This document shows positions 15,969 to 32,758 of a stretch of 64,000 nt of DNA, piece by piece. The stretch spans positions 3,187 through 67,186 of the forward strand of contig CALVRJ010000002.1 of assembly GCA_944358545.1 (NCBI GenBank), read 5' to 3'. The notes beneath the pieces were generated by a model that worked only from the letters and a program-made list of their open reading frames with translations, searched no databases and had not been told where the DNA came from. The number at the start of each line of letters is the position of its first letter. The stretch's first letter is position 1. A program made the position numbers and the translations under genes. Source of the DNA: an uncultured Bacilli bacterium (GTDB lineage: Bacteria > Bacillota_I > Bacilli_A > RF39 > UBA660).

Positions 15969-17270
15969 CTATACTAAATGTAGCTTTTTAAATACTTTAT
16001 CAAAATTCGTTGCAATATCAACAACACTTTTATTTTCGTTTAAAGGCTTAACAACATCTATATAACTATTTAAAGTATCAGATAAATCAATAACAATACT
16101 ACTTTTATCATAATAAACATCTGTTGTTATTATTGTAGAACCATGCCCTAACATAGCCGACACAGCTTTCACACTAAAGCCTTCATTTAAAAGTCTAGTT
16201 GCATAAGTATGTCTTAAATCGTGAAATCTAATATTTGGAAGATTATTTTCCTTAAGTAATTTCTTAAAATATTTATAATAAAAGCTCTTACTTCTTGGAT
16301 GACCATAAGTTGAACAACATATATAATTTAAATCCAAAAAGGGATTATTTTTATCATTAATTCTTCTACTTCTATTTCTTTCATACTTTTTACGTTCTTC
16401 CACTATTGCATTAAAAACTATATCTGGAATATTTAAAATTCTATCACTATTTTTAGTCTTTAAAGGTATTTCCTGTTTTGTATAAGTTTTCAATTTAAAT
16501 TCTTTTTTATTAGAATTCGAAACTACCCCTAATTGTCTACAAACATGTAATTTTTTATTTACAAAATCCACATCAGAATATTTTAAACCATTTATTTCTT
16601 GTTTTCTAAGCCCCATAATAACAGCAAATAAAACCTGTAAATATATGGGCGTTTCTTTGCTCTTTTCAACCAAAGTAAACACTTGCTCATCATTTAAAAC
16701 CTTAGTTGTGTCAATTTTCAAAAATCCATATTTTCCATAATCAACATTTTTAGATAAATAAATATTTTCTGATGGATCAGAACTAATTAAATCATTTTTC
16801 CTTGCAAATTGTAAAGCACCTTTTAATACTACTCTAAGCAATCTCGCAACAGACTTATGCTTTTCAGCTACTTTATCATAAATGGATTTTATATTATCAG
16901 TATTTATTTGACATAAATTAATATTTTTAAAAAATACATCTAAATAATTATAAACAATATTCTTATAAGACATATAACTATTATAAGTTATTTTAGGTTT
17001 CATAATGTTTTCAAGCCAATAATCAAAAAAATCAATAGCTTTAATTTTATTTTCCACAACATAAGTATGAGTTTCAAGTTGTAAAATTACCTTATTTCTC
17101 TCTTTATTAGCCTCGCTTTTTAAATCAAAACCACTGTGTTGCTTTATTGTAACAGTATCATCTGAAAAAAATAATTTAACTCTAAATCCATATTTATCTT
17201 TTATATTAGTAACAGAATAAACAACATAATTCACATAAGTTTTATACAATAATTTTTCAAGCATTAGCAT
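15969..17270 (-). CDS. Tyrosine site-specific recombinase / integrase 1
   Basis: C-terminal R..HDLRHTYAT...LGH...Y catalytic motifs of the phage integrase family. Confidence 0.8.
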   Translation of the reverse strand: MLMLEKLLYKTYVNYVVYSVTNIKDKYGFRVKLFFSDDTVTIKQHSGFDLKSEANKERNKVILQLETHTYVVENKIKAIDFFDYWLENIMKPKITYNSYMSYKNIVYNYLDVFFKNINLCQINTDNIKSIYDKVAEKHKSVARLLRVVLKGALQFARKNDLISSDPSENIYLSKNVDYGKYGFLKIDTTKVLNDEQVFTLVEKSKETPIYLQVLFAVIMGLRKQEINGLKYSDVDFVNKKLHVCRQLGVVSNSNKKEFKLKTYTKQEIPLKTKNSDRILNIPDIVFNAIVEERKKYERNRSRRINDKNNPFLDLNYICCSTYGHPRSKSFYYKYFKKLLKENNLPNIRFHDLRHTYATRLLNEGFSVKAVSAMLGHGSTIITTDVYYDKSSIVIDLSDTLNSYIDVVKPLNENKSVVDIATNFDKVFKKLHLV

Positions 17271-18462
17271 TTACATCAAATAAATTGTTCATGAATGACA
17301 ATATTTTTTCATCGTCATCCATAACTTCACAATAATATTTAAAAGTAGTATGAATAGATTGATGGCCTAAAAAAGCTGATATTTTTGCAAGATTTTCGCC
17401 AACATTAATTGAAGAATTTTCCAATAATATTGTTGCACACATATGTCTTAAAGCATGAACAGTTATATGAGGTAAACTCAAATCATTACATACTTTTTTT
17501 ATATGTGCATTTAATGAAGTTAATGAATGTGGTCTTCCATCAACACCACAGCTAACATAATCATTATCAACATATTTTTCTTGAAATATTTGTTTATTAA
17601 TATTTACTAATTCACTACGTTTAGATAACTCTTCTAAAACTAAGTTAGGTACTCTAATTGTTCTAAAACTATTTGAAGTTTTCGGATAATGTTCCACCAA
17701 ACGATTTTCAATAACTTTAGACGAACCTTTTATTCGTTTTCCACTTTTAACCAATTGTCTTTCAATTCTCAAAGTTTTATTCTGTAAATCAAAATCGCTA
17801 AATTTTAATGCTAATATTTCACCTTTTCTTAAACCGCAAAATAAAGCTAATAATATTTCTAAATACCAATTAGATTCACTCTCTACCTTCAAAAATTTCA
17901 TTAATTGTTTAGTATTTAATATTTTTATTTTAGGTTTTATCCTTGGATAAGTTTTAGTATCTAAAGCAATATTTTTAGTTACTATTTTTTTCTTTACAGC
18001 AAATTTAAAAGCCATAATTAAAATACTACGAACACCTTGTGCCCCATAATCCACCATTTTTGAAATTTTTAAAAGAAGCTCATCCAAATATGAAGTTGTT
18101 ACCAAACTTAATTTCACATCGTAGTCAATATTAGAAAATATTAAATTATAAATCATATATGCAGAAACAATCTCCGTAGAAAATTCTACTTTTGAAGAAT
18201 AAATTTCTTCAAACCAATAAGTTAAGTAATTTTTAAAAGTTATATCCTTATCTATTTCTTTTTTTTGACTTTTCAACTGTTCCTTAAATTCCCTTTCATG
18301 TTCATAATAAGCAATATCAGATTCTTCCTCAGTTTTATAACCTTTTTTCTTTTTATAAATTGTTTCACCATTTGGTCCAACAACTTTATATCTATGACAC
18401 CATGAAGAATATTCATAAAAAGATATACCGTTTTTTCCTTTATAAATTTTACCTCTACTCAT
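17257..18462 (-). CDS. Tyrosine site-specific recombinase / integrase 2 (overlaps integrase 1 by 14 nt)
   Basis: HALRHMCAT...LGHQSIHTTFKYY catalytic box; N-terminal SAM-like domain. Confidence 0.8.
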   Translation of the reverse strand: MSRGKIYKGKNGISFYEYSSWCHRYKVVGPNGETIYKKKKGYKTEEESDIAYYEHEREFKEQLKSQKKEIDKDITFKNYLTYWFEEIYSSKVEFSTEIVSAYMIYNLIFSNIDYDVKLSLVTTSYLDELLLKISKMVDYGAQGVRSILIMAFKFAVKKKIVTKNIALDTKTYPRIKPKIKILNTKQLMKFLKVESESNWYLEILLALFCGLRKGEILALKFSDFDLQNKTLRIERQLVKSGKRIKGSSKVIENRLVEHYPKTSNSFRTIRVPNLVLEELSKRSELVNINKQIFQEKYVDNDYVSCGVDGRPHSLTSLNAHIKKVCNDLSLPHITVHALRHMCATILLENSSINVGENLAKISAFLGHQSIHTTFKYYCEVMDDDEKILSFMNNLFDVNANA

Positions 18463-18471
18463 AAATTCACC

Positions 18472-18684
18472 CTATTCTAAATCATTTAACCAATTATCAA
18501 AAGATTTCTTAGGAATTTTGTAAAGCTTACCTATCTTTAACACTTTAAAAGGTTTTTGTGTTTTAAAGATTGCATGTATCCAACTATACGCCGTACTTCT
18601 ACCTAATCCCAACATCTTTTGAATGTCTACAACGTCATAGAACAATAAATTACTATTCATGTGGTCACACCATAAAAATAACAA
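18472..18684 (-). CDS. Excisionase/AlpA-like HTH_17 DNA-binding protein
   Basis: 70 aa, DVVDIQKMLGLGRSTAYSWI helix-turn-helix, immediately upstream of the integrases. Confidence 0.5.
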   Translation of the reverse strand: MLFLWCDHMNSNLLFYDVVDIQKMLGLGRSTAYSWIHAIFKTQKPFKVLKIGKLYKIPKKSFDNWLNDLE

Positions 18685-18713: not shown

Positions 18714-18926
18714 TCATTGTTTTGCACCTTTGACATTCTTAAAATGCTGTATTGAATATTTAAAATAAGGTTTATCGTCAAATATTTTATTCATATTAAC
18801 GTCATAATCAGAACATTTATTAATAAAAGATATAACTTTATTTAATGTTTTTACTTCGTTTTTTTCTCTAACTATCATTTTAATTTGTTGTACCTTTTCC
18901 ACAACAACTAAATATTCTTTCATCAC
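18714..18926 (-). CDS. Hypothetical 70-aa protein translationally coupled (ATGA overlap) to mazF; candidate downstream antitoxin
   Basis: 4-nt overlap with the mazF stop; no recognizable domain. Confidence 0.35.
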   Translation of the reverse strand: MMKEYLVVVEKVQQIKMIVREKNEVKTLNKVISFINKCSDYDVNMNKIFDDKPYFKYSIQHFKNVKGAKQ

Positions 18927-19258
18927 ATACCTCCTAAACTCAAAGAAATAACAATAGCTCTATTTATTTCTTTAATTTTTTTATCTGATAACTTACATAC
19001 AAAGAGTTTTAATCTACTTTTATCAATAGCACGTATTTGTTCTAATAAAACATTAGAAGAATATTTAATAAAATTATTCGGCTTTAAATAAACATGTGTT
19101 GGCAAATTAAGAATTTTAGAAGTAATTGGAGCTACAATAGTTGTCGGACTATATCTGTTTCCGACGTTATTTTGAATTATAACAACTGGTCTTGTTCCAC
19201 CTTGTTCACTTCCCTTGACAGGATCTAAATTAGCATAATATATTTCACCTTTTTTCAT
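18923..19258 (-). CDS. mazF: MazF/PemK-family endoribonuclease toxin
   Basis: GEIYYANLDPVKGSEQGGTRPVVIIQNNVGNRYSPTTIVAPITS is the classic PemK/MazF core. Start placed at ATG 19258 (RBS AAGGGGA 7 nt upstream) rather than the track's 19309. Confidence 0.75.
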   Translation of the reverse strand: MKKGEIYYANLDPVKGSEQGGTRPVVIIQNNVGNRYSPTTIVAPITSKILNLPTHVYLKPNNFIKYSSNVLLEQIRAIDKSRLKLFVCKLSDKKIKEINRAIVISLSLGGM

Positions 19259-19728
19259 TAACATTCCCCTTTCAAAAACATCACAAATAAAATATGTAAA
19301 AAAAAACAATAAGAATAATAAAATCCTATTGTTTGTAAATAATCATAATTAAAATTTTCCTCCTCGCCCTAATTAGGGATTTATCAAACGACTAATTGCT
19401 AATTAGTTCCATAGGAATTTCACCTCAACTGTGGTTCTCACAGAGCCGTTCCGATTGATTGAGTCTATCGCTAAACGGAAGTATCATTATACTTTTAATT
19501 TGTCATCGCAAAATTAAGAGCAACTTAATTTTTATAACCAAATATTTATCGCTAACTATTTAATATAGATTACTGCGTATTTGTTAACGTGCTATAATTA
19601 AAAGAACGTATTTGATAAATGCTATTTGATTATCAAAGAACAAACTTATTTCTAAAAAAGAAACAAGTAAAAGGAACTTATCCTTCCAATTGTTTCCTAA
19701 ATAAAGAGTGATTTAACAGACACAAATT

Positions 19729-20202
19729 TTATTTTTTTAATATTTTTTTCAAGTTTTCTAACGCTCGTTTTAAAACAATATGAACAGATTGTTGTGTAGC
19801 ATTCTCTTCTTCAGCTATTTCTCTCTCGGTTTTCTCTTGAAAATAATATTTTTTAATCCTTCTTTTTTGTACATTGGGCAATTTATCTATTGCTTTTTTT
19901 AGCTCTTCAAAAGCACATTTATTAATAACCTCATCTTCTAAACTTATGGACTTATTAATAGCACGACTATTTAAATTATTTTCAAATATTTCAGAATGTT
20001 CAATATGGTTATCATATTCATTCATTTCTGATAAATCTTCTAACTCAAATTTATCTAAAGCATTAAAAATCTCTTCACTTATTTCTACCTTTTGAATAAT
20101 TCCACGACTATCTTTAAAAGACACTATATAAACCTTACAAACATTATCTATTTCAAGTCTATACGGATTATCCTTATACCTTCTTCTTTTAGGTCTTTGC
20201 AA
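19729..20202 (-). CDS. Sigma-70 family region-4 protein (Tn916 Orf7-like conjugative-element regulator)
   Basis: C-terminal region 4 HTH (EREIAEEENATQQSVHIVLKRALENLKK); divergent N-terminus. Confidence 0.55.
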   Translation of the reverse strand: MQRPKRRRYKDNPYRLEIDNVCKVYIVSFKDSRGIIQKVEISEEIFNALDKFELEDLSEMNEYDNHIEHSEIFENNLNSRAINKSISLEDEVINKCAFEELKKAIDKLPNVQKRRIKKYYFQEKTEREIAEEENATQQSVHIVLKRALENLKKILKK

Positions 20203-20607
20203 CTTTTATACCTCCTATCAACTAACTTTTTTCGTAAATTGATAGGAGGAGATCTAATTTTTAGATATAAAAAAAAACGCAAGAACAGAACAAAATCTGA
20301 ACTTGCATCATGAAAAAAACAGTAATAGTCCCTTTTTATTCCAAAGAGACTATACTGCATAAATAAATTCTCCCCGAAATATTGGGGTATATTATATATT
20401 TTAAATTACAAACATATTATACTTTTGCACTAAATATATAATTGTTTGATTAAACGTTAACAAAGTATAACCAACAATGACACTTTTTTAAATTAGAACA
20501 ATAAACTTATAATTATAAACATTTTTTGTAAACAAATAACCAATTATATGATATAATCTAAAATTACATCAACAATCAAAACAAACTTAAATCATTATTA
20601 TAAAAAA

Positions 20608-20685
20608 CTAATAAAAATAAAAATAAAAATAAATTATAAATTATAAATTATTAATAATTAATAATTAATAATTAATAATTAAGAA
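20608..20685. repeat. Cluster of A/T microsatellites: (ATAAAA)3, (TTATAAA)2-3, (TTAATAA)4-5
   Basis: Read directly in the 580-bp intergenic region between the sigma gene and the bacteriocin operon. Confidence 0.6.
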
Positions 20686-20732
20686 CACCCAAAAATAAAC
20701 ACTTTAAATTAATTTAACAATACAATCTTTTA

Positions 20733-20772
20733 ATCATTTCATATAAAAAATACCAGGAAACAAAATTCATGG
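20733..20772 (-). terminator. Bidirectional rho-independent terminator ending the bacteriocin operon after the signal peptidase gene
   Basis: ATACCA/TGGTAT stem (20740-20745 / 20760-20765), 14-nt loop, T7 on plus and T-run on minus. Confidence 0.5.
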
Positions 20773-20782
20773 TATTTTTTTA

Positions 20783-21220
20783 TTAAATTTTTAAAATCAT
20801 TTTCCCTTTAACTTGATTTAAAGAAATTGTACCAAAGTTTCTTCCATCATAAGAATAAGGACGATTATCTCCTAAAACAAGTATTTTGTTGTTTTCAACA
20901 GTAACACTAAAATCATCTGTAAAATTTCTTTCAAACGGTTCCTTAATTTTTTTATTGTCAATAAACAACTTATTTTTATTAAATTCAACTTTATCTCCAG
21001 GTAATCCTATAATTCGTTTAACATACAATTTGTTATCCACTTTAACTATAACTATATCAAAATAATTAAGTTTAATATTATTCTTTTTATATAAAACAAT
21101 ATCATTATTATGCAAATTAGGTTTCATAGAATTACCATCAACTTTAAAAAGGCCAAAGGAAAAACAAAAATATAAAACAATTGCTAAAAATATTAAATAT
21201 ATTATTAATGAAATTTTTTT
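20783..21220 (-). CDS. Signal peptidase I (S26); true N-terminus extends upstream of the track ATG with no canonical start
   Basis: Track ORF 20783-21127 has box D/E (VKRIIGLPGD, VLGDNRPYSYDGRNFG). The codon immediately upstream of the track ATG is Ser, giving the catalytic S-M. The frame stays open to ~21244, encoding a basic/hydrophobic signal anchor (IKNKKISLIIYLIFLAIVLYFCFSFGLFKVDGNSM), with only ATA/ATT as possible starts. Confidence 0.65.
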   Translation of the reverse strand, partial: KKISLIIYLIFLAIVLYFCFSFGLFKVDGNSMKPNLHNNDIVLYKKNNIKLNYFDIVIVKVDNKLYVKRIIGLPGDKVEFNKNKLFIDNKKIKEPFERNFTDDFSVTVENNKILVLGDNRPYSYDGRNFGTISLNQVKGKMILKI

Positions 21221-21225
21221 ATTTT

Positions 21226-21855
21226 TTATAAATGCAATATGGCATCACATTCTTGAGCTAATTGTTCATTATGAGTTACCATAATTATAGTTTTTCCTTG
21301 TTTATTTAACTGTTTTAAAATACTCATAACTTTTCTTGCATTAGAATTGTCTAAATTTCCAGTTGGTTCATCAGCTAAAATAATATCTCCTTTTTTTAAC
21401 ATAATACGAGCCAAAGCTACTCTTTGCTGCTCACCTCCAGATAAAGTATAAACCTTCTTATTATTATAAGATGCCAAACCTACTTTGTCTAAAGCTTCTG
21501 ATACTTTTTCTTTTTTTTCTTTCAACGGAATTTTTTCATATTCCAAAGCCAAAAGCAAATTATACTCAACACTTTCATCATCTATTAAAGCATAATTTTG
21601 AAATAAATAGTTTATATTGTTACGGATATATTCATTTACTTGTTTTTCTTTTAACATAGCAACATCTTTTCCGTTAAACAATACTTCTCCAGTATAATCA
21701 AAATCTAATAAACCAATTATATTTAATAAAGTACTTTTACCACAACCACTTTTTCCAACAATAGCCACAAATTCACCATTATTTATTTTATAAGATAAAT
21801 CTGTGAATATAATCTTTTCACCAAAAGATTTACTTACTTTCTTTAATTCAATCAT
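21226..21855 (-). CDS. ABC transporter ATP-binding protein (bacteriocin export/immunity)
   Basis: Walker A GKSGCGKST, signature LSGGEQQR, Walker B IILADEPTG. Confidence 0.85.
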   Translation of the reverse strand: MIELKKVSKSFGEKIIFTDLSYKINNGEFVAIVGKSGCGKSTLLNIIGLLDFDYTGEVLFNGKDVAMLKEKQVNEYIRNNINYLFQNYALIDDESVEYNLLLALEYEKIPLKEKKEKVSEALDKVGLASYNNKKVYTLSGGEQQRVALARIMLKKGDIILADEPTGNLDNSNARKVMSILKQLNKQGKTIIMVTHNEQLAQECDAILHL

Positions 21856-24019
21856 TTGCTCCTCCTTTTAAATCAATATAAACTTTATTAAACTTATATT
21901 TCTGAATTACAAATATAGATATTAAACAATCAATTATCAAAAACAACGATACAGATATAATAAACAAAATAATATTAAGTAAATTTAAAATTAAAAGAAT
22001 AAAGAAAGATATAACTAAGGCAATAACAGTATACAAAATATTTCTCTTCATTATTGGTTCAAAAATTTTAAATTTATCAAATCCTAACAAATATTTCACT
22101 ACAACAGACTGTTGTTCACTTTTAACATATAATGAAAATACTTCAATAGAAATTATAAAGTAAACCAAAACAATCAAAGCAACTCCTAAACACACTACTA
22201 ACATTATTAACCTTGCACGTTGAATTTCGTCATTAAAATAATCTTTAAATGACATAAAATTACTTTGGCCAATCAAATTACTCAAACCAGCTTTTTTTAC
22301 ATCATCTAATACATAATCTAAAGTATTACTATTAACTTTTATTTTTAACCCCGTTGTTAATGAATTGCCAAATACGCTAATTCCTCTAGAACTTTCAATA
22401 TAGGATAATTTTATTGAATCATCAACAACACGTAATCTAGGATTTTTAACATATTTAACACTTAAATCTAGTCTATACGAATTAAAAGATTGATCATCAT
22501 ATAAATACGCTTTAAATTCAAGAGGTATATTATATTTTTCATAATCTTTTTTAGAATCTTCTAAATAATACTTTTTAAATTTTGGAACGATATTTTTTTC
22601 GCTTTTAGCAAACAAGAAAAATACTCCATCAATATTATCAATATCTACCAATTGACCATTTAAATTATATATTTTTATATTCTCTTTTTTTAAATAATTT
22701 CTATCAACAGAAGCATAATCAAAATATTTACCTTCACTTTCCCATTTTTTTATTCTTCTTTCTTCATCAGGTTTTACTTTTACATAATTACTAAATTGAG
22801 AATAAAATGTGGATAGCCTTTTATCATTATATATAATGTTATATAAATTAGCTTGTTTATCATAATCATATATTTCAGGTGAATCAGCATTAAAATCTTT
22901 TATAATTCCATAATCCAATAACTCTTTAGAATTATTATAAACTTTTAACGATGAATTTAAAGATGAAATAGAATTTCCTAATAAAGAAATGCCAACAATC
23001 ATCATTATAGTCATTAAAAGCTTTAATTTAGCACTTGTTTTGCCAATCTTTATTGCAACATTTTGTTTTTTTATAATATTAGAAGTGCGATAACTTTTTA
23101 AAATAAGATTAACACAAAGCATATTCAAAAAATAAGTAATTAACAATAACAAACATGTAATAATCAGCAAGAATAAGAACTGTAAAAGATTCATATTACT
23201 TGCTAAAATCAATGCTAAAATTAAAATAATAATTGAAAAAATAATATATATTTTTAGTTTATTTTTTATCATAATATTAGAAATTTTTATTTTGTCAAAA
23301 CCTAACAACTTCATACAACCAATTTTTTTAGAATTATAATAAGTATCATAAATTTCAAAAACAAAATAAAATATCATTATAAATATAATACTAAATACCA
23401 ACAATATAAATGTTTCGGTTTGCAAATCTGTAATTGATAAGCTGGTAGATATATCTTTATCAACAATTTTTTTTATTTGATTACTAAAATTAACAAAATC
23501 ATCGTAATTCTTGTAATAAACCAAATATTCACCATAATAATTTCCTTTTTCATTTATTAATGTCGAAAAAGTATAAAAATTATATTTGTCATTTTCCAAA
23601 AAATCTTTTATTAAAAAAACTTGTTTACTATCTTGATGATTATATGTAGAAATAAAAGAATCATCTGTTATTTTTTTATTTAATGACACAACTTTAAATT
23701 TTTTACTAATAATTTTTTTTATTTTGTTAATATTATCTAAAGAAACATAAACATTTTTTATAGAACCATCTTTACCAGAAATGTTTGATTTAGCTAAAAC
23801 AACTTTATTATCTTGTGCTAATTTTGCCACTTCTTTCATAGATTTATCATTAATAACGATATCATCGCTATAATTAATTCTAATGGAATCTCTACTATAT
23901 CCAAAAAAGTTCAAATATTGACTCGATTGAGAAAAATTTAGAAAAAGAATAGAAATAATTATTGCTACCAATATACATAAAATAGGTATTATTCTAGTTA
24001 CATATTTCAAAAAAACCAC
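21848..24019 (-). CDS. Bacteriocin-associated large integral membrane protein (Lcn972 ORF2-like, FtsX-like permease)
   Basis: 723 aa, N-terminal TM, large extracellular domain, two clusters of 3-4 TM helices; sits between the bacteriocin and ABC ATPase as in the lactococcin 972 operon. Confidence 0.6.
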   Translation of the reverse strand: MVFLKYVTRIIPILCILVAIIISILFLNFSQSSQYLNFFGYSRDSIRINYSDDIVINDKSMKEVAKLAQDNKVVLAKSNISGKDGSIKNVYVSLDNINKIKKIISKKFKVVSLNKKITDDSFISTYNHQDSKQVFLIKDFLENDKYNFYTFSTLINEKGNYYGEYLVYYKNYDDFVNFSNQIKKIVDKDISTSLSITDLQTETFILLVFSIIFIMIFYFVFEIYDTYYNSKKIGCMKLLGFDKIKISNIMIKNKLKIYIIFSIIILILALILASNMNLLQFLFLLIITCLLLLITYFLNMLCVNLILKSYRTSNIIKKQNVAIKIGKTSAKLKLLMTIMMIVGISLLGNSISSLNSSLKVYNNSKELLDYGIIKDFNADSPEIYDYDKQANLYNIIYNDKRLSTFYSQFSNYVKVKPDEERRIKKWESEGKYFDYASVDRNYLKKENIKIYNLNGQLVDIDNIDGVFFLFAKSEKNIVPKFKKYYLEDSKKDYEKYNIPLEFKAYLYDDQSFNSYRLDLSVKYVKNPRLRVVDDSIKLSYIESSRGISVFGNSLTTGLKIKVNSNTLDYVLDDVKKAGLSNLIGQSNFMSFKDYFNDEIQRARLIMLVVCLGVALIVLVYFIISIEVFSLYVKSEQQSVVVKYLLGFDKFKIFEPIMKRNILYTVIALVISFFILLILNLLNIILFIISVSLFLIIDCLISIFVIQKYKFNKVYIDLKGGAND

Positions 24020-24067
24020 CTCTTACAACAAAAAGTGGAGAATAAGAAATTCTCCACGACATTATTC

Positions 24068-24406
24068 TTACTCTCTCCAGTAGCCTCTGACTTCAGCATA
24101 ATCATCAAACAAACTTCCATAATCTCTATGCGTTATAGAACGAGTTGATTTCTTTGCCCAGTCAGAATAAGTACCCCCAGCTCCAGATCTAGCATAAACT
24201 TGTTTCTGGTAATTGTAGGCAGCTGGAGCACCGTTAGACATTGTGCCTTCAATCCAATTTCCTTGTAAAGATGTACCAGCAGCAGTATCCATATGGAAAA
24301 CGTTATTAGGTCCCAAGTTATAGCCAGCTAATGCTGTTGCTAAACCAGAAACTGTTACGACAACTGCAAATGCAAGAGTAGTCACATACTTTTTCATTGT
24401 ACTCAC
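24068..24406 (-). CDS. Lactococcin-972-family bacteriocin precursor (Sec signal peptide plus ~80-aa mature domain)
   Basis: N-terminal signal peptide (MKKYVTTLAFAVVVTVSGLATALA|G); mature part Gly/Ala/Tyr/Trp-rich with G-rich segment plus WAK motif. Canonical operon context. Locally elevated GC. Confidence 0.55.
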   Translation of the reverse strand: MSTMKKYVTTLAFAVVVTVSGLATALAGYNLGPNNVFHMDTAAGTSLQGNWIEGTMSNGAPAAYNYQKQVYARSGAGGTYSDWAKKSTRSITHRDYGSLFDDYAEVRGYWRE

Positions 24407-24582
24407 CTCCTTGTCTTTTTAGATTTCTATTATAAAAATAATAGACAAATTAAGGAGATGTAATGGTTGCAAATATAACCAGTAACAACAACAAGAAGAA
24501 CAACAATCACATCATAATGCAATATTAATTAATAAAATATTACAATTAAATAATAACATAACGCAAGAAATTAAAACAAATA

Positions 24583-24681
24583 TTTGCTCGAAAAAACAGT
24601 AACTGTGCTTAAACGCTTTTTATTTTAACAATTTGTTTATAATACAAGCGTTCGAGCAAAAAAACATAGCATTCGAACAAA
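24583..24681. promoter_or_regulatory. Operator-like inverted repeats between bacteriocin operon and divergent XRE gene
   Basis: TTTGCTCGAA (24583-24592) and its exact reverse complement TTCGAGCAAA (24651-24660), a third half-site ATTCGAACAAA (24671-24681), and palindrome ACAGTAACTGT (24596-24606). Confidence 0.45.
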
Positions 24682-24854
24682 ATAAATAAAATGTTTGTTA
24701 TTTTTTATCATCCTTATTATTTTTTTATAGCACACTCTTAAATATTTTAAAGTAAATAAAAACAAATAACAAAATCCAAAAATATTTTAGCACAATTAGA
24801 ACCAAAAATCAATTGGTAAATTTTGCACCACTAGAATAATAAATAGGTGGTCAT

Positions 24855-25295
24855 ATGACATATTTTTCTAAAAAAATTCGTGATACAAGAATAGACAATG
24901 ATTCAACACAAGAACAGATGGCAAACATCTTAGGAATAGCAAGAAGCAGATATAAAAATTATGAAATTGAAAGAAATATGATGCCATTATTTATAATTGT
25001 TAAGTTTGCAAATCATTTTAATTTAAGCTTAGATTTTTTATTTAATCTATCAAATAAAAAATATTGTAATTCTAATATAAATTATAATAATGACCTTTCA
25101 GCTAAATTAATTAAGCAAATAAGACAAGAGAAAAATCTTTCACAAGAAAAATTTGGAAAAATACTTGGATTACCACAACGCACATATTCAAGTTATGAAA
25201 ACAACGAAAGAACATTAACCATAGAAATACTACTCAAAATAGCAAAAATCACGCATTATTCCCTTGATTACCTCACAGGGCGAGTAAACAATTAA
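24855..25295 (+). CDS. XRE-family regulator with two tandem HTH_3 domains
   Basis: Two Cro/CI-type HTH segments (TQEQMANILGIARSRYKNYE and SQEKFGKILGLPQRTYSSYE). Confidence 0.7.
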   Translation: MTYFSKKIRDTRIDNDSTQEQMANILGIARSRYKNYEIERNMMPLFIIVKFANHFNLSLDFLFNLSNKKYCNSNINYNNDLSAKLIKQIRQEKNLSQEKFGKILGLPQRTYSSYENNERTLTIEILLKIAKITHYSLDYLTGRVNN

Positions 25296-25377: not shown

Positions 25378-26805
25378 TTATGTTATTCCATAACCATATA
25401 TATCTTTACTATTTATTTTATAATTTCTTTCTTTAACTTGATCACCAGAATTTCCCTCAATTGTATAAACCATATTGTTTTCAACTTTCTCAACAATTCC
25501 AACATGGTCTGCTCGGCCATCTTGTTGCCAATCAAAGAAAATAATATCTCCAGACTTTGGAATATATCCCCTATCTCGCCATCTAGACATAGATTTAAAC
25601 CAAGGCACACCTTGATTTGTACATGAAGAAAACCTAGGAACAATTACATTTAAATTACCAGATTGATTAGCTACCCAGCTTACAAATATCGCACACCACT
25701 CTACTCTCTGTTGAAATCCATACCATGACCAAAATTTTTGCCCACCTTTATTTCCAATTTCATTCTTTGCAATTTGAACCATATCGCTATTTCCTAATGA
25801 TTTTCCAAAAATTACATTTTTCCATAAAGATTTGTATTTTTCGTTTGTTAGCTCATAAAACTGTTTCTTTTGATCAATATTAAACATATTTAAATTCATA
25901 ATTTCTTCAGGTGATTTACCATCTATCCTAATCGTAAGCATTTTTATAGCTCTTCCATCTTCAGACTGTCTATCACTAATAGATGATGTAATAACGTTCA
26001 TCTCCCAAAAAATGGACTTTAAAATTTCAACCTTATTATCATCCATTGTAACAACTTCCGTTGCAACTTGTCCATTAGCTACTTTTACTGCATAAATTGA
26101 AAGTACATCTTCCCACGAAGCCATATTGGAAACAATTTCATAATCATCGTGAGGAGTTGTATTTTGAATTTCTAATATTTTATTATTTAAATCTATTTTT
26201 ATTTCTTCAACAACTTGACTTATAGTTTTCTCATTATTCATATTCTCACTTGAAAAGAAAATACCAAATACTGAATTAAGCAATATAGCAATTAAAGTTA
26301 TAACTAAAATTATTACAACAGCAATAACTCCAAATATTCCAAGAGGAACTATCATATTTTTCAATTTAAGAACATTAGCTTTTAAAGCACTATAAAACCT
26401 AGATTTTTTTTGTAAGTTTTTCTTTTTAGATTTAGTATTCTTTAAAGATAATAGTTTTTGTTTTACATATCCTTTTGCCTTATTAGGATTACTTTTAGAT
26501 TTACTTTTAAAGCTAAATTTGTTTTTCAATTTATTAGATTTAGAGTTTACTTGAGTATTATTAATTTCTTCTTTTAATTGATTTAATCGTTTTTTTTGTT
26601 TCTTAGCTAAGCTTTTAGATTGATATTTAAATACAGGTCTTATTGTATCCTTTATATACCCAATACTTTGTTCATTAACATTCTCATCGGTATATTCACT
26701 TTTTTCCTTAACATATTCTAATGCTTCCTTAGTCTTCTCGGCAACAATAAGACCTTTATCCAATAATTTTATTTTTTTTTTAGGTTTCTCTTTTATATCA
26801 GACAT
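25378..26805 (-). CDS. Conjugative-element peptidoglycan hydrolase with C-terminal CHAP domain (Tn916 Orf14 / TcpG analogue)
   Basis: N-terminal K-rich region plus TM; C-terminal CHAP Cys (EWCAIFVSW) and His (DHVGIVEKV). Confidence 0.7.
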   Translation of the reverse strand: MSDIKEKPKKKIKLLDKGLIVAEKTKEALEYVKEKSEYTDENVNEQSIGYIKDTIRPVFKYQSKSLAKKQKKRLNQLKEEINNTQVNSKSNKLKNKFSFKSKSKSNPNKAKGYVKQKLLSLKNTKSKKKNLQKKSRFYSALKANVLKLKNMIVPLGIFGVIAVVIILVITLIAILLNSVFGIFFSSENMNNEKTISQVVEEIKIDLNNKILEIQNTTPHDDYEIVSNMASWEDVLSIYAVKVANGQVATEVVTMDDNKVEILKSIFWEMNVITSSISDRQSEDGRAIKMLTIRIDGKSPEEIMNLNMFNIDQKKQFYELTNEKYKSLWKNVIFGKSLGNSDMVQIAKNEIGNKGGQKFWSWYGFQQRVEWCAIFVSWVANQSGNLNVIVPRFSSCTNQGVPWFKSMSRWRDRGYIPKSGDIIFFDWQQDGRADHVGIVEKVENNMVYTIEGNSGDQVKERNYKINSKDIYGYGIT

Positions 26806-29137
26806 CTAAGACTTCACTCGGTTTAGTTGTCATTAATTTATAAAGCTTTGTATTCTTAGGAAAATCATTTTCAAAAGGAACTAAAATGCTACCAATTCTA
26901 ATAAGGCCATGTCCTGCAGCCACATTAGTAATATAACTCATTTGAAGTTCAGAAATATTTAATAATTTGGCTAATTCAACTCTGTCTGTTGCGGCTTGAT
27001 TAAGCATAACAATAAATTCAGAATTTGCAAGCATCGTTCTTGCAGTATGACTTTGTAATAAATCATCGACATTCTGTGTTATCCCAGTCGCACATGCTCC
27101 ATATTTTCTAACACGTTTCCATAAAGTAAACAAGAAATTTGCCGAATACTCATGTTGAAATAACAAATATATTTCATCAATAAAAATATAAGTAGTTCTG
27201 CCTTTAGACCTATTTTTTGTTATTCTATTTAAAATACTATCTAATATAACTAACATTCCAAGTGATTGAAGTTGTTTACCCAAGTCTAAAATATCATAAC
27301 AAATTAATCTATTATTTGTATCTACATTAGTCTGTTTAGCAAAAGTATTCAAACTACCATTAGTAAATAATTCAATAGCAAGAGCTATACTCTTTGCTTC
27401 GGGTTCAGTTTGTTTCATTAACTCATCATGAAAATCTTGTAATGTTGGTGGTGTACCTTGATAATTTCCCTGCTGATAAAACCTATAAACATTTGCCGTA
27501 CATCTATCAATTATTGATTTTGCTTGTGGATTTAAATTGTTTTTTCCAATCAATTGCTCACAAAGTGATAATAAGAATTCAGACTTTAAAATAACTGGAT
27601 TTGCTCCATCACCATAATCTTTATTAAGATCCATCGCATTTATATGATTATTACTTGTTGATGATATTTTTATAACCTCACCATGTAAAGCATTTACTAA
27701 ATTACCATATTCCCTTTCAGGATCTATTATAATTATATCAGCATTTGGATTTTTAAGCATAGTGTTAACAATTTCATTTTTGGCTACAAAAGATTTACCA
27801 CTACCTGGAACACCTAAAATAAATGAATTTCCATTTAGTAAACTACCTCTATCAGCTAATATCATATTTTTACTAATCACATTTTGACCGTAATATACAC
27901 CATGAGGATGGTTAATTTCCTGCACTCTAAATGGCATAAAAACAGCAAGTGATTCTGTAGTTAAAGTTCTTAATGAATCTATTTTTTTAACACCGTAAGG
28001 AATTACAGTATTAAGTCCATCCATTTGTTGCCACTTTAATACTGCCAGCTGACATAAATGTTTTCTAGCGGTTGCAAGTAAAGCTTCGGTATCATTATCT
28101 AACTCTTTTTTACTATTTGCCGTATGCACAAAAGTTAAAGTGGATAAAAACATTCTTTGATCTCTAGTTGTTAAATCCTCTAAAAATTCTTTACTTTCTT
28201 TTCTTTGAAGTTCTAAATCATAAGGAATAACTGCACTAAAATTGTTTTTATCATTTTGTCTTCGTTGCCAATTTGTAATATTGCTTTCAACCCCAAGTCT
28301 TCTGTTTTCTACCTCACGAATTGCTTCATCCAAAGGAATTGGTAAAACATCTATGCTCATCATCATATTTTTATTTATATCAGTAAGTTCTGATACCATC
28401 GAATCTTTAATAAATGAAGCATATTCTTTTAAAAACAAAACTCTACCATATTTATTACCAAACATAAAATAATCCTTTTCAAAACTAAAACTATCTGGAC
28501 ATATATAATCTTTAAAACTATGCCCTTTTTTCATGTTAGATAATACATCAAAACTAAAGTAATTCTCTTCGCCAATTCTAAAAAAATCATAAAATACTTT
28601 TAATCTATTAACAGAATTCGTTCTAATACATTTAGAACCTAATTCAGCTAAACGATTAGATAACTCCACTTCAATTCTATTAAAATAATTTCTTGCCTCT
28701 TCTAAACTATTTTTATTTACAGTAATTGTTATATATTTTTCTTGAACAATATTATTAAAGTCAGATACTTTATTTTTAAGCATATCATTATACTCTCTTC
28801 GATATTCATCAAGACTATCATTAACATAATCAGATAACATATTCTTTTCAAAATCTTGTTTGTTAATATAATGATTATTTATTGTAATTTTTGTTATCGC
28901 ACTAGTATCAAATCCATTTAAAACTTCACTATATTTTAAAAACATTGCTTCTTTATCATTTTTAGAAGCAACGGCATAATTTACATCAGTAAACTTATAA
29001 GATACAGAATACTTATTTTCTCCAACTAAAAAAATTCCATCTTCAAACATTTTTTGAACTGGAATAACATCTTGAACTCCTTTAGGTACAATATATTTTT
29101 CATGTTCATTGTTTTTTATTTTTTTGAATAGATTCAT
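26798..29137 (-). CDS. VirB4-family conjugal transfer ATPase (TcpF / Orf16 / PrgJ-like)
   Basis: 779 aa, Walker A GVPGSGKS, Walker B IIIDPERE, AAA_10-like architecture. Confidence 0.8.
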   Translation of the reverse strand: MNLFKKIKNNEHEKYIVPKGVQDVIPVQKMFEDGIFLVGENKYSVSYKFTDVNYAVASKNDKEAMFLKYSEVLNGFDTSAITKITINNHYINKQDFEKNMLSDYVNDSLDEYRREYNDMLKNKVSDFNNIVQEKYITITVNKNSLEEARNYFNRIEVELSNRLAELGSKCIRTNSVNRLKVFYDFFRIGEENYFSFDVLSNMKKGHSFKDYICPDSFSFEKDYFMFGNKYGRVLFLKEYASFIKDSMVSELTDINKNMMMSIDVLPIPLDEAIREVENRRLGVESNITNWQRRQNDKNNFSAVIPYDLELQRKESKEFLEDLTTRDQRMFLSTLTFVHTANSKKELDNDTEALLATARKHLCQLAVLKWQQMDGLNTVIPYGVKKIDSLRTLTTESLAVFMPFRVQEINHPHGVYYGQNVISKNMILADRGSLLNGNSFILGVPGSGKSFVAKNEIVNTMLKNPNADIIIIDPEREYGNLVNALHGEVIKISSTSNNHINAMDLNKDYGDGANPVILKSEFLLSLCEQLIGKNNLNPQAKSIIDRCTANVYRFYQQGNYQGTPPTLQDFHDELMKQTEPEAKSIALAIELFTNGSLNTFAKQTNVDTNNRLICYDILDLGKQLQSLGMLVILDSILNRITKNRSKGRTTYIFIDEIYLLFQHEYSANFLFTLWKRVRKYGACATGITQNVDDLLQSHTARTMLANSEFIVMLNQAATDRVELAKLLNISELQMSYITNVAAGHGLIRIGSILVPFENDFPKNTKLYKLMTTKPSEVLDV

Positions 29138-30642: not shown

Positions 30643-30954
30643 CTACTTTAAAATAATATCTAAAATTGGTTGTATAAAAACCATTATAATTCCCCCACCA
30701 ACAGACAAAAAGCCATCAGTTCTTTGTGTCGCATCATGACTACGAATTGAAATTCCAATTTGCATAACACCAAAACCTGTAAAAATAACACCTATTGCCC
30801 TAACAAAACTAAATATAAAGTTTGTCAAATTATCTACAACAGTAATCGGATCATCTGCTGCAAACACAGAACCTCTCGTCCAAAACATCAATGAAATAGC
30901 AAACGTAATAAACTTATATAAACTTAAAAATTTATTTTTTCTCACTTTTCTCAC
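30643..30954 (-). CDS. Small T4SS membrane protein (TcpD/Orf19-like)
   Basis: 103 aa, signal anchor plus 2 TM helices. Confidence 0.4.
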   Translation of the reverse strand: MRKVRKNKFLSLYKFITFAISLMFWTRGSVFAADDPITVVDNLTNFIFSFVRAIGVIFTGFGVMQIGISIRSHDATQRTDGFLSVGGGIIMVFIQPILDIILK

Positions 30955-32758
30955 CTTCTTTATTTCTATTTATATAATCATCAATTTCTTCAGATGAAAT
31001 CACTGTATAATTTGATTCATTATCCATGCTAATACTTTCATTTTCTTCGCTATTATTTTCATCAAAACTTATAACTATCGAAGCAACTTCATTGTCAGTT
31101 TTTCCATGCACATATATACCACCTTCTCCATCAGCAGAAAATTTAATATTAGGGTGCTTTAAAATATTATATTTATTATCTTTAACTGGTCTTTCGCCTC
31201 TTATAAAAAGCAAAGCATAATTATTATCAAGCATTCTTACCTCATCAGGTGTCATAAGTTCTCTGCCACTTAATTGATAATTAGTAGAATAATTACCAGA
31301 CCTGCCAGATGTCTTTCCATGGGTATCTAAATCTATTGTTTCTTTTCCAAGAAGTTCACTAATATATTTATGTGTAGATTGCTCATTCCCACCTAAATAA
31401 AGTAACTCATCACAATTACCAACAATAGATTCCCATTGCTTTTCAAATAAAGCTTTTAATTGAGCTAAATTCTGTAATATGATTGAAACTGACACATTCC
31501 TACTTCTCATAGTAGACAATATTTTTTCAAAATCATCTGGTAAACTTACATTGGCAAATTCATCCATTACAAAGTGAACATGCATAGATAAACTTCCACC
31601 ATATTTATTATCTGCTAAGAAAAAAAGTTGTTGGAACAGCTGAGTATATAAAATACTTACTAAAAAATTAAAAGAAGTATCATTATCTGGAATTAAAGCA
31701 AATAAAGCAACTTTCTTTTCACCTAGTGAAGATAAATCTAATTCATCTACCATAGTTAAAGAAGCCATACTTTCAAGATTAAATTTTTCAAGTCTACTTG
31801 CCAACGTTATTTGTATCGACTTCAACGTTTTACCAGAACCTGAACGATAATTTTTATAATATTTAACAGCTATATGATTCGGATATTCTTCTTCTAATTT
31901 TTCAAACAAAATATCTAACGGACTTAAATACATATCATCATCCTCTTTTACTTCACCTGCTCTAAGCATTTCAAGAACCATGCTAAAGTTTTGTTCATCT
32001 TCTGGAGCTTCATATTTTAGATAAAAAATTAATGCAAGTAATAACATGCTCGCTGCAGTATCCCAAAATGGATCATTAGTAGAAGAAGCTTTTGGAGTTG
32101 TAGCTTTAAACAAATTGGTAACTAATTTTTGAACATCATTATCATCTCTAAGATATACAAAAGGATTATAACAATGACTTTTATCCATATTTATTAAATC
32201 TAAAACCTTTACCTCATAACCAAATTTTTCTAAAAGATTTCCTGTATCTCTCAAAAGCTCACCTTTAGGATCTAAAACAACATATGAACAATTACATTGC
32301 ATTATATTAGGTTTACAATAAAATCTAGTTTTCCCTGCACCACTTCCGCCAATAACTAAAGTATTCAAATTTCTACGATGTATTCTTCCATCTAATCCAA
32401 TACAAACATTATTTGTTAATATTTTGTTATTCAAATCAGAATTTTGCTTATATTTTTTATTTATACTTCTCGCATTACCCCACTTTGCCGAACCATATTC
32501 TACCTTTCTTCTATAGTTCTTCTTTGATGACAAAATAATTCCATAGACAATTACATATACACAAAGACATACTGCAATCGTTTTAAAAGTGCTTTCACAC
32601 AACACTATTTTAAATGGATTACTTAAAATGTTTGAAAAATTATTTACTATTCCTACTAATCCATGATTAGATATAGGTGCGATTAATAATGCAAACCATA
32701 AAACAAATACAAACCCAAACAAGAATAACAAAAGCTGTTCTTTATAACTATTGTTCAT
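30932..32758 (-). CDS. Type IV coupling protein (VirD4/TraG/TcpA-like)
   Basis: N-terminal 2 TM helices; Walker A GGSGAGKT; Walker B VMDEFAN. Confidence 0.8.
   Translation of the reverse strand: MNNSYKEQLLLFLFGFVFVLWFALLIAPISNHGLVGIVNNFSNILSNPFKIVLCESTFKTIAVCLCVYVIVYGIILSSKKNYRRKVEYGSAKWGNARSINKKYKQNSDLNNKILTNNVCIGLDGRIHRRNLNTLVIGGSGAGKTRFYCKPNIMQCNCSYVVLDPKGELLRDTGNLLEKFGYEVKVLDLINMDKSHCYNPFVYLRDDNDVQKLVTNLFKATTPKASSTNDPFWDTAASMLLLALIFYLKYEAPEDEQNFSMVLEMLRAGEVKEDDDMYLSPLDILFEKLEEEYPNHIAVKYYKNYRSGSGKTLKSIQITLASRLEKFNLESMASLTMVDELDLSSLGEKKVALFALIPDNDTSFNFLVSILYTQLFQQLFFLADNKYGGSLSMHVHFVMDEFANVSLPDDFEKILSTMRSRNVSVSIILQNLAQLKALFEKQWESIVGNCDELLYLGGNEQSTHKYISELLGKETIDLDTHGKTSGRSGNYSTNYQLSGRELMTPDEVRMLDNNYALLFIRGERPVKDNKYNILKHPNIKFSADGEGGIYVHGKTDNEVASIVISFDENNSEENESISMDNESNYTVISSEEIDDYINRNKEGEKSEKK

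Follow-up and report, generated by a model that had tools for sequence, protein, structure and literature searches.

The 64,000-nt stretch of DNA analyzed here (hereafter the window) carries on its minus strand a four-gene module which we read, with a probability of roughly 60%, as the cargo of an ICE, consisting of a secreted antibacterial protein with the lactococcin 972 (Lcn972) fold, an ABC transporter for self-protection and a signal peptidase (SPase) inherited together with it. This reading draws on gene content, family scores, a predicted fold, synteny, coding constraint and the ICE context (Table 1). The four co-directional ORFs of the original prediction were all borne out. Their order was found again in many independent metagenome contigs, and the genes are therefore real rather than chance ORFs; the order is kept in both ICE and non-ICE settings. 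As had been proposed, the three-gene core of precursor, membrane protein and ABC ATPase matches the layout of the lcn972 operon, with the ATPase scoring above the TIGR03608 cutoff.

Table 1. Coordinates of the module, its regulatory signals and the neighboring regulator in the window.
Feature	Coordinates	Strand	Description
Precursor gene	24068..24397	-	109 aa
Sec-type signal peptide	24397-24326	-	residues 1-24; cleavage site between ATALA and GYN
Mature small protein	24325-24071	-	85 aa, 9.45 kDa, pI about 6.9, Cys-free
Conserved 5' leader of precursor gene	24398..24560	-	near-identical in window, L001 and L007
Anti-SD in leader	24460-24453	-	CATCTCCT; can pair with SD
Palindrome TCTATTA/TAATAGA	24445-24439 and 24432-24426	-	between anti-SD and SD
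Precursor SD	24412-24404	-	AAGGAGGTG; upstream of ATG 24397
Two overlapping hairpins, precursor-permease gap	24016..24057	-	fold -18.8 kcal/mol, z -3.6
Terminator-like hairpin	24057-24035	-	GTGGAGAAT-TTCTT-ATTCTCCAC, then TTTTTG; from scan
Second hairpin	24038-24016	-	CCACTTTTTGTTGTAAGAGGTGG, then T7; sequesters permease SD
Polytopic membrane protein (permease)	21848..24010	-	720 aa, TTG start at 24010
ABC ATPase	21226..21855	-	209 aa; ATG overlaps permease TGA stop
Type I signal peptidase (P-type, Ser-Lys)	20783..21238	-	stop at 20785-20783
Operon-end hairpin with flanking A-tract and U-tract	20736..20788	-	overlaps SPase stop codon
Double-HTH XRE/RstR-like regulator	24855..25295	+, divergent	146 aa; NCBIfam NF041951 86.3 bits

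The precursor ORF is a real gene, but the GTG at 24406 from which it had been read lies within the SD; the true start is the ATG at 24397, and the homologues all start with MKK. The raised GC content noted for this gene was confirmed (40.6% vs 20-26% in its neighbors and 27.9% across the window). Inspection and hydropathy also revealed the features of the expected Sec signal peptide, namely an MKK n-region, a hydrophobic core of 17-18 residues and an A-L-A motif followed by G, in which the Ala at position -1 is invariant. No modification enzymes were found among the operon genes. The gene 1 product would be a Sec-exported precursor cut at this motif after the 24-residue signal peptide, and the released product would be an unmodified, cysteine-free, all-beta protein with the Lcn972 fold.

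Membership of the known Lcn972 sequence family, as originally predicted, was not recovered. The small protein had no match to PF09683 or TIGR01653 at E<=1 in Pfam or NCBIfam, and neither did any of 25 members of its family, even at E<=10. A profile search of PDB sequences did not recover the Lcn972 structure 2LGN, and hhalign returned probabilities of 1.8% against an alignment of true Lcn972 homologues and 0.4% against the mature Lcn972 sequence. Since no family model matches, a result that the original prediction had itself named as refuting, the small protein falls outside the Lactococcin_972 family at the sequence level, and statistical support is also absent for the resemblance claimed between its "WAK" segment and Lcn972. 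The fold predicted for the mature peptide had as its best matches the two solved Lcn972-family structures, 2LGN and 9HKJ; the predicted beta-sandwich superposes on both, which places the model within the Lcn972 fold. A Foldseek search with the predicted structure returned no match at E<=0.001. The protein belongs to a small sequence family outside the reach of existing Lcn972 models. By analogy with Lcn972, it may be a secreted antibacterial directed against the cell envelope of related bacteria, with lipid II as a candidate target extrapolated from Lcn972.

Gene 2 encodes a polytopic membrane protein of the predicted size. Hydropathy indicated about eight TM segments in two repeats. In each repeat a large extracytoplasmic domain separates a first TM from three more, and each bears an FtsX-like K.LG(F)-type motif. 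The match to TIGR01654 that had been suggested as a check was found (29.8 bits, E 2e-7), but it lies far under the cutoff of 189.35; neither PF07242 (DUF1430) nor Pfam FtsX matched the window permease. TIGR01654 was the sole family matched by 18 of the 22 permease relatives (best E 2.3e-20), PF02687 FtsX was matched in two relatives, and hhalign against the DUF1430 protein of a bona fide Lcn972 locus gave a probability of 41% (E 2.8e-4) over 261 collinear columns. A remote kinship of the permease to TIGR01654/DUF1430 proteins is supported by these profile comparisons. The third gene is the anticipated ABC ATPase, with 275.5 bits against TIGR03608 (L_ocin_972_ABC; cutoff 254.85) and residues 4-209 aligned to model positions 1-206 of 206. 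It also matched PF00005, is 42% identical to its counterpart in a canonical Lcn972 locus and is most similar to the FtsE, LolD and MacB ATPases. Together, the double FtsX-like permease and the TIGR03608 ATPase would constitute an ABC transporter with which the producer protects itself, in the manner of lcn972 orf2-orf3.

MacB/FtsX-type (type VII) ABC systems such as BceAB protect against cell-wall-active peptides. Like them, the window transporter has a permease with large extracytoplasmic domains between TMs, FtsX-like motifs and a separate ATPase, and its presumed role is resistance to an envelope-acting peptide; unlike them, its permease has a 4+4 TM arrangement and no two-component regulator is adjacent. 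We consider it very improbable that the small protein is a non-antimicrobial secreted beta-sandwich (lectin-like, adhesive or a signal, for example) encoded beside an unrelated export or resistance ABC system. The beta-sandwich is a generic fold, the protein has no sequence similarity to any characterised bacteriocin, and its profile aligns weakly and non-significantly with the actinohivin lectin repeat (E 0.12). However, the structures that it matches best are precisely those of the two Lcn972-family bacteriocins, the ATPase falls in a subfamily defined by Lcn972-type gene linkage, the permease matches the bacteriocin-associated family alone, and a high-expression structural gene followed by a candidate attenuator (see below) and an immunity-type ABC is the typical layout of a bacteriocin operon.

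For the preferred reading of an antibacterial protein with its immunity transporter, the nearest known systems are lcn972-orf2-orf3 of Lactococcus lactis pBL1 and related Lcn972-family loci, among them those for Formosin D (PDB 9HKJ) and for mediterrocin (Mediterraneibacter gnavus). The lcn972 operon comprises the structural gene and orf2-orf3, which encode a putative immunity ABC transporter (PMC4055356), and Lcn972 binds lipid II and inhibits septum formation (PMC4055356, PMC9964109). Mediterrocin, a gut Lcn972-family bacteriocin, is 18% identical to Lcn972, experimentally active and similar to it in AlphaFold-predicted structure (PMC12345188). Like these loci, the module combines a precursor with a Sec signal, whose mature form is an unmodified protein in the range of about 66-90 aa, with a large polytopic membrane protein and then a TIGR03608-type ABC ATPase, and it is carried on a mobile element. 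It differs in the length of the mature protein (85 aa vs 66 aa in Lcn972), which has no detectable sequence similarity to Lcn972 (hhalign probability < 2%), and in its 720-aa permease with about 8 TM, two FtsX-like repeats and no DUF1430 match. It also has a fourth gene, for a signal peptidase I, which neither the canonical locus that was examined (L135) nor the lcn972 and mediterrocin clusters as published (PMC4055356, PMC12345188) contain.

Conserved RNA elements flank the precursor gene. RNAalifold predicted an SD-sequestering helix in its 5' leader, which is without covariation support because the sequence is invariant. No Rfam family matched the leader, and no convincing sigma-70 promoter was found near the precursor gene in a scan. 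Four terminator-like sites were detected in the region, compared to 0.7 expected, and a stem-loop with a U-tract occupies the same position after the precursor gene in eight diverged loci, with stems that differ and show compensatory changes. The paired hairpins are likely an attenuator giving a high ratio of precursor to immunity transcripts; as a leaky terminator, the conserved hairpin after gene 1 would make the precursor mRNA abundant and leave the transporter and SPase mRNA scarce. The operon-end hairpin (dG -13.5 kcal/mol, z -4.2; none of 200 shuffles equally stable) looks like a bidirectional intrinsic terminator, and it escaped the consensus scan because it is too AU-rich for a search demanding at least three GC pairs. 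The terminator proposed after the SPase gene is therefore present, as a hairpin with A/U tracts, but it is not the only one in the operon, since a second, terminator-like hairpin, itself conserved, lies directly 3' of the precursor gene.

The last gene proved to be the expected SPase I (TIGR02227, 98.1 bits vs a cutoff of 47; PF10502, 92.5 bits vs 22.9), with PDB relatives among SPase I (4nv4, 4me8, SpsB) as well as SipA (4n31) and LepA (4k8w). The ORF as annotated (21127-20783) did not hold up, because its product would lack the TM anchor and the catalytic Ser and would be catalytically dead. Its ATG at 21127, the only canonical start, yields a 114-aa product and encodes the Met within the catalytic box GNS-M-KPNL. 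The same frame encodes, 5' of this ATG, the TM anchor, a KNKK tail and, at 21130-21128, the catalytic Ser; the Lys (YVKRIIGLPGD, codon 21019-21017) and the GDNR box lie within the ATG-defined ORF. Upstream, no stop codon interrupts the frame as far as 21244, and ATG, GTG and TTG are all missing from it; in this clade no SD precedes the SPase coding frame. The same start-less layout was found in L001, L002, L004, L007 and L008, with one indel, of 9 nt and in-frame. The upstream segment is under purifying selection, with dN/dS at 0.08-0.63 vs 0.11-0.29 in the body (window, L001, L007, L008), and this coding constraint argues that the upstream segment is translated. In distant loci the SPase has an ordinary ATG start and 146-173 aa, and the Ser, Lys and GDNR boxes are kept in all module SPases. 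Gene 4 would encode an active-type (Ser-Lys), membrane-anchored signal peptidase I, whose translation is probably coupled to the ABC stop codon (TAA, 21228-21226) and initiated at a non-canonical start, either ATT 21238 or ATA 21229, the latter overlapping that stop.

It is very unlikely that the SPase gene in this clade is a decaying remnant which lost its start and now gives an inactive cytoplasmic 114-aa fragment or no product at all. Decay would fit the lack of any ATG, GTG, TTG or SD 5' of the catalytic Ser, the public annotation of the 114-aa ORF alone, and the fact that 155-aa calls need TGA to be read as Trp, which is not the code of this genome. Nevertheless, the start-less layout is common to lineages whose precursors are merely 71-72% identical, neither stops nor frameshifts interrupt the frame over its full length, 37-40 upstream codons included, the sole indel preserves the frame, synonymous changes are present with dN/dS < 1, and every catalytic box is intact.

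In the original prediction this SPase was suggested to be a dedicated leader peptidase for the bacteriocin or immunity functions. Its conservation as the fourth gene, diverging together with the module, was upheld, but the leader-peptidase role is just one reading. On the one hand, SPase identities drop in step with those of the permease and the precursor, the gene always directly follows the ABC gene (with an overlap or <=27 nt away), and it accompanies the transporter in at least nine diverged lineages. On the other hand, there are exceptions both ways, as two of these lineages, L137 and L138, keep permease-ABC-SPase without an adjacent precursor gene and L134 and L140 have the precursor and no SPase. 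Therefore, the SPase is a module component and not a proven leader peptidase; the precursor does not strictly require it, nor does it strictly follow the precursor. Most likely, it would secure or boost cleavage of a heavily expressed precursor in any host that the ICE enters. An unlikely alternative is that it serves the transporter and is not, or not only, a leader peptidase, acting in self-protection or in assembly of the permease complex, for example by trimming or inactivating the bacteriocin at the membrane surface or by processing another envelope substrate needed for immunity. The triplets without the small gene, the constant junction with the ABC 3' end and the two precursor-bearing loci that do without an SPase all favor such a role, but the cleavage site of the precursor is a textbook one for SPase I, and no AXA-like site is present at the N-terminus of the permease. 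Moreover, we know of no precedent for an S26 peptidase in bacteriocin immunity, and orphan immunity operons are a common outcome of toxin gene loss, so that those observed here may merely retain the SPase as a passenger. Quite unlikely, in our estimation, is that the SPase is obligatory and co-evolved for immunity or transporter assembly in a new Lcn972-fold class, being made by unusual translation at the ABC stop; this would involve either ATA/ATT re-initiation or a -1 shift at T-TTA-TAA fusing the cytoplasmic ATPase to the membrane-anchored peptidase. No co-inherited signal peptidase within a bacteriocin or immunity operon was found in the literature searched.

Dedicated signal peptidases encoded in operons include SipW of Bacillus subtilis tapA-sipW-tasA and SipA/LepA of streptococcal pilus islands, and SipP of B. 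subtilis (natto) is a plasmid-borne signal peptidase. Like these, the module SPase is an extra S26 gene beside the housekeeping enzyme, located in a substrate operon or on a mobile element. It differs from the ER-type SipW in being a minimal SPase of the P type (Ser-Lys), about 150 aa long, from the pilus chaperone SipA in retaining its catalytic residues, and from all of them in its linkage to a bacteriocin-type immunity transporter and, in this clade, in the lack of a canonical start. It shares the S26 family and a conjugative element with the TraF-type conjugative signal peptidases (TIGR02771); TraF identity was rejected at 38.2 bits vs a cutoff of 100.25, the SPase I score being far better. 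The SPase goes with the permease-ABC pair outside ICEs too, so it is part of the bacteriocin-type module and not of the transfer machinery.

The proposed ICE location was corroborated by a relaxase, a T4CP, a VirB4-like ATPase, a CHAP hydrolase, an excisionase-like protein and an integrase (Pfam Relaxase, T4SS-DNA_transf/TraG-D_C, AAA_10/P-loop_TraG, CHAP, HTH_17 and Phage_integrase), followed by a sigma-like protein, MazF and the adjoining chromosomal uvrB. By gene content, the element is a Tn916-like ICE with the module in cargo position, and the same backbone was found in L001-L004. Its host is an uncultured gut bacterium of the Bacilli with low GC. The closest match of the window uvrB among the sampled genomes was Candidatus Coprosoma. 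The divergent HTH protein may regulate the module or the ICE, its association being uncertain; L001-L004 lack it here and have HTH genes downstream of the SPase instead. A more tentative and, on balance, somewhat unlikely reading is that the module is chiefly an addiction (post-segregational killing) system that stabilizes the ICE rather than a competition weapon, as cells losing the element would lose immunity and be killed by the product of their siblings. There is precedent in the lcn972 cluster, which improves plasmid maintenance by such killing (PMC4055356). The module also lies in the cargo slot of an ICE bearing a MazF/PemK toxin gene, and it recurs on related ICEs from many samples; however, L005, L009, L010, L012 and L134 represent apparently chromosomal, non-ICE settings, and addiction and competition are compatible roles requiring the same molecular mechanism.

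An Lcn972-fold antibacterial in this module would mean that Lcn972-type bacteriocins extend past current HMM detection, into a family of 100-120-aa secreted proteins of uncultured gut Bacilli unseen by PF09683 and TIGR01653. This family is recognizable by fold and gene neighborhood alone, so mining tools built on these two models probably miss it. The public 114-aa SPase product without its catalytic serine is an annotation error, and the start-less yet selectively kept frame is well suited to testing for non-canonical initiation or recoding in low-GC Bacilli. Whether a Sec-dependent bacteriocin can require a processing enzyme of its own, or an S26 peptidase can aid immunity, would emerge from the role of this SPase. 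Finally, a toxin-immunity pair spread by an ICE among gut bacteria would bear on both strain competition and element stability.

The module of a precursor gene, a permease gene, an ABC ATPase gene and a type I signal peptidase (SPase) gene has the conjugation genes of an integrative conjugative element (ICE) on one side and its genes for regulation and integration on the other, with the chromosomal uvrB following the integration genes. This is where a Tn916-like ICE carries its cargo, and the original claim that the module is ICE-borne was supported by the relaxase, T4CP, VirB4-like ATPase, CHAP, HTH_17 and integrase genes that flank it. Among species-representative genomes, uvrB best matched Candidatus Coprosoma intestinipullorum (83% nucleotide identity, the host placement being approximate), and its remaining matches were gut 'Bacilli/Tenericutes/Erysipelotrichaceae' MAGs. 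The window proteins were also present in an NCBI WGS record with prefix JFBN01. Several other genes were noted around the element. Immediately upstream of the relaxase gene lies an ORF of 489 aa whose reverse-transcriptase domain (PF00078 RVT_1, E 5e-16) may be that of a group II intron maturase or of a reverse transcriptase of the retron/Abi type. Two tandem tyrosine recombinase genes with overlapping ends separate the ICE from uvrB, and a second integrative element may have been the neighbour of the ICE at insertion, or may have entered along with it. The gene for MazF, a MazF/PemK-type endoribonuclease toxin, is followed by a 70-aa ORF that overlaps its 3' end, as it also is in the related metagenome locus L001; these two genes would add another potential addiction module to the bacteriocin/immunity pair. 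Finally, six PARCEL repeats (TIGR02167, E 3e-62) were recognised in a protein of 432 aa that resembles Mbov_0838-type surface lipoproteins. Mollicutes, Erysipelotrichia and Listeria typically encode such proteins, and this one fits the inferred host lineage.

Coordinates of the module, its signals and the surrounding genes in the window
Feature	Coordinates	Strand	Location or source
PARCEL-repeat protein	1380-2678	-	
Tyrosine recombinase	15969-17270	-	between ICE and uvrB
Integrase (tandem tyrosine recombinase)	17257-18462	-	regulation/integration side
HTH_17 protein	18472-18684		regulation/integration side
70-aa ORF	18714-18926		after MazF gene
MazF	18923-19309	-	regulation/integration side
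Sigma-like protein	19729-20202		regulation/integration side
AT-rich stretch	20590-20700	-	just downstream of operon terminator
Four same-direction ORFs (module genes 1-4)	20783-24406	-	ORF listing
ABC/SPase junction	21226-21250	-	
Gene 3, ABC ATPase, 209 aa		-	ORF; ATG overlapping gene 2 TGA stop
Second hairpin	24038-24016	-	overlaps first hairpin
Terminator-like hairpin	24057-24035	-	directly 3' of gene 1; terminator scan
Leader palindrome (within)	24426-24460	-	gene 1 5' leader
Leader anti-Shine-Dalgarno	24460-24453	-	gene 1 5' leader
CHAP hydrolase	25378-26805		conjugation side
VirB4-like ATPase	26798-29137		conjugation side
T4CP	30932-32758		conjugation side
Relaxase	34263-35576	-	conjugation side
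489-aa RVT_1 ORF	35609-37078	-	immediately upstream of relaxase gene

The feature described in the original prediction proved largely real, with corrections to the precursor start, the permease start, the extent of the SPase and the number of terminators. GTG 24406 was rejected as the start of gene 1, as it falls within the Shine-Dalgarno (SD) sequence AAGGAGGTG; the gene starts at ATG 24397, at normal spacing from the SD, and MKK begins every homologue, so that the precursor has 109 aa. For gene 2, TTG 24010 is the most likely start, giving 720 aa with an N-terminus (M-KYVTRIIPI) that matches the start of its homologues (MKK-ITKIIPI). The predicted elevation of GC in gene 1 held, at 40.6% versus 20-26% in genes 2-4 (27.9% in the window). 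A terminator after the SPase gene was likewise borne out by a hairpin (-13.5 kcal/mol, z -4.2), but it is not the only one, since gene 1 too is directly followed by a terminator-like hairpin. A stem-loop with a U-tract occupies this position in eight diverged loci whose stem sequences differ, and a second hairpin overlapping the first sequesters the permease SD. These two hairpins fit a common bacteriocin design, in which an abundant structural transcript is combined with attenuated, presumed read-through into immunity genes.

The 5' leader of gene 1 is conserved in the window and in the related loci L001 and L007. It contains an anti-SD sequence, CATCTCCT, that can pair with the gene 1 SD, and a perfect 7-nt palindrome (TCTATTA...TAATAGA); since this sequence does not vary among the three loci, covariation support for the pairing is absent. 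These elements may act in translational control, as an mRNA-stabilising element or as an operator. No Rfam match was obtained across window positions 20300-25000. Just beyond the operon terminator the sequence is very AT-rich (GC 13-17%), with short tandem repeats of TTAATTA (five copies) followed by TTTATAA and TTTTTA units.

The transporter genes resemble those of the lactococcin 972 (Lcn972) operon to different degrees. The ABC ATPase scored 275.5 bits on TIGR03608 (L_ocin_972_ABC), above the cutoff of 254.85, and is 42% identical to that of the canonical Lcn972 locus (L135). The membrane protein did match TIGR01654 as originally anticipated, but at 29.8 bits it fell below the cutoff of 189.35, and it matched neither DUF1430 nor FtsX in Pfam. 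Hydropathy pointed to some eight TM segments forming two repeats. In both, a single TM leads into a large outside domain (~175 and ~255 aa), three further TMs follow, and an FtsX-like K.LGF motif precedes the repeat. Of the 29 clusters (705-730 aa) in the permease family, two match Pfam FtsX, and TIGR01654 was the sole family matched by 18 of 22 members (best E 2.3e-20). Against the DUF1430 protein of L135, hhalign gave E 2.8e-4 over 261 collinear columns (probability 41%). The permease is only a remote relative of TIGR01654. In the lcn972 operon, orf2-orf3 encode a putative immunity ABC transporter (PMC4055356), and by analogy genes 2 and 3 would form an immunity ABC transporter here.

The small protein could not be assigned to Lcn972 by sequence. 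On the one hand, the PF09683 match by which the original prediction was to be judged was absent: gene 1 matched no family, with neither PF09683 nor TIGR01653 at E<=1 (Pfam, NCBIfam), and none of 25 aligned family members matched PF09683 even at E<=10. Its family profile did not recover the Lcn972 structure 2LGN among PDB sequences, and hhalign gave probabilities of 0.4% against mature Lcn972 and 1.8% against a profile of aligned, verified Lcn972 homologues, the latter profile being shallow (Neff 1.8) because the word-indexed search yielded close Lcn972 homologues only. For the small protein, word-indexed searching of 5.8 billion proteins returned just 12 relatives, all lacking Pfam domains, and an exhaustive HMM search yielded 18 matches among 1.84 billion cluster representatives. 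Relatives were absent from species-representative genomes, neither the small protein nor the permease matched PLSDB plasmids, and a JGI metagenome scan gave two short loci only. Judged from sequence, the small protein represents a new family outside PF09683. Its most conserved motif, Y.K(Q/R)VYA(R/Q).G..G.YS.W (approximately mature residues 37-57 in alignments A3 and A5), weakly and non-significantly resembles all three repeats of actinohivin, a lectin (E 0.12), probably by chance, though this is the sole sequence-level echo.

On the other hand, structure prediction pointed to Lcn972. AlphaFold2 gave no usable model from 13 close sequences (pLDDT 44.7), and a confident model of the 85-aa mature protein (pLDDT 95.8, pTM 0.84) was obtained because distant members from the exhaustive profile search were added, for 25 sequences in all. 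Seven strands and a single short helix make up this model. Its first two structural matches were 9hkj_A, the Lactococcin 972 family bacteriocin Formosin D (7.8; 70; 2.3 A), and 2lgn_A, Lcn972 (7.5; 63/66; 2.0 A), both at 3-5% sequence identity, followed by the MspA rim domain 2v9u_A, a generic sandwich (6.0; 80; 3.2 A). Foldseek against the PDB returned nothing significant, only nanobodies and designed Ig-like proteins (E>=0.038). The original interpretation is partly supported: the module is an Lcn972-like system by architecture and modelled fold, but not by the sequence family of the small protein or the TIGR01654 cutoff.

Gene 4 matches type I signal peptidase; a TraF-type conjugative peptidase was ruled out by score and by synteny outside ICEs. 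The complete four-gene arrangement was found in the window and in related loci L001-L004, L005, L007, L008, L009, L010 and L139, on ICEs as well as in unrelated chromosomal contexts. The SPase is missing from L134 and L140, which keep the small gene, permease and ABC gene, from the canonical locus L135, and from the lcn972 and mediterrocin clusters as published (PMC4055356, PMC12345188); literature searches for Lcn972 or bacteriocin clusters carrying a signal peptidase gave nothing relevant. SPase identity falls from 72% to 36% in parallel with that of the permease (77% to 35%) and with precursor identities, and the SPase has therefore been inherited with the module rather than repeatedly captured. 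The proposal that the operon has its own signal peptidase holds as co-inheritance, but a purely precursor-directed leader peptidase was not established, given two SPase-less loci and two orphan permease-ABC-SPase triplets (L137 and L138). These triplets, at 4001-7210 in L137 and 3959-7354 in L138 (there preceded by a 366-aa membrane-anchored HTH protein), lack an adjacent small precursor gene and may be immunity-only cassettes still keeping the peptidase.

The SPase reading frame extends beyond its only conventional start codon. Its HMM match begins at about profile position 30 because ATG 21127 encodes the Met within the catalytic box G-N-S-M-K-P-N-L. Directly upstream, the same frame contains the codon for Ser (21130-21128) and also encodes a hydrophobic anchor and a KNKK tail; it is stop-free back to 21244, and ATG, GTG and TTG are all absent from that upstream stretch. 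This layout is common to L001, L002, L004, L007 and L008, whose precursors are just 71-72% identical to that of the window. Comparison of the window, L001, L007 and L008 revealed a 9-nt in-frame indel and synonymous changes in the upstream segment, with dN/dS of 0.08-0.63 versus 0.11-0.29 in the rest of the gene, and the segment is therefore coding. More distant loci have an ordinary SPase ATG overlapping or abutting the ABC stop and full-length enzymes of 146-173 aa, all of which keep the Ser, Lys and GDNR..S.D.R boxes.

Some metagenome gene calls use genetic code 4, reading ATG-TGA as Met-Trp in a 155-aa SPase (MWCHIAFIKNKK..., MWCH...). This was rejected: of the window's 48 long minus-strand ORFs, 11 end in TGA, among them that of the permease, and internal TGA codons away from the ends are absent from all long genes. 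As this genome uses TGA as a true stop, the 155-aa call is a caller artefact. Less probably, a -1 shift at T-TTA-TAA would produce an ABC-SPase fusion; RNA folding of the junction was no better than shuffles (z +0.9), giving no sign of a frameshift-stimulating structure. SPase translation is most economically explained by coupled re-initiation, either at ATA 21229, a codon overlapping the ABC stop TAA 21228-21226, or at ATT 21238. The junction also has, in the SPase frame, an ATG followed at once by TGA (ATG TGA TGC CAT ATT...) and, in the third frame, the start of an 8-codon mini-ORF (MPYCIYKK-stop in the window, MKYCVYKE-stop in L001). Both are conserved across the window, L001, L002, L004, L007 and L008, and may reflect constraint from the ABC C-terminus alone or a part in re-initiation.

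For the module as a whole, we infer an antibacterial activity, a lipid II target, an immunity role and a substrate of the SPase. Two of its features are worth follow-up, namely the co-inherited SPase and its start-less yet constrained frame.
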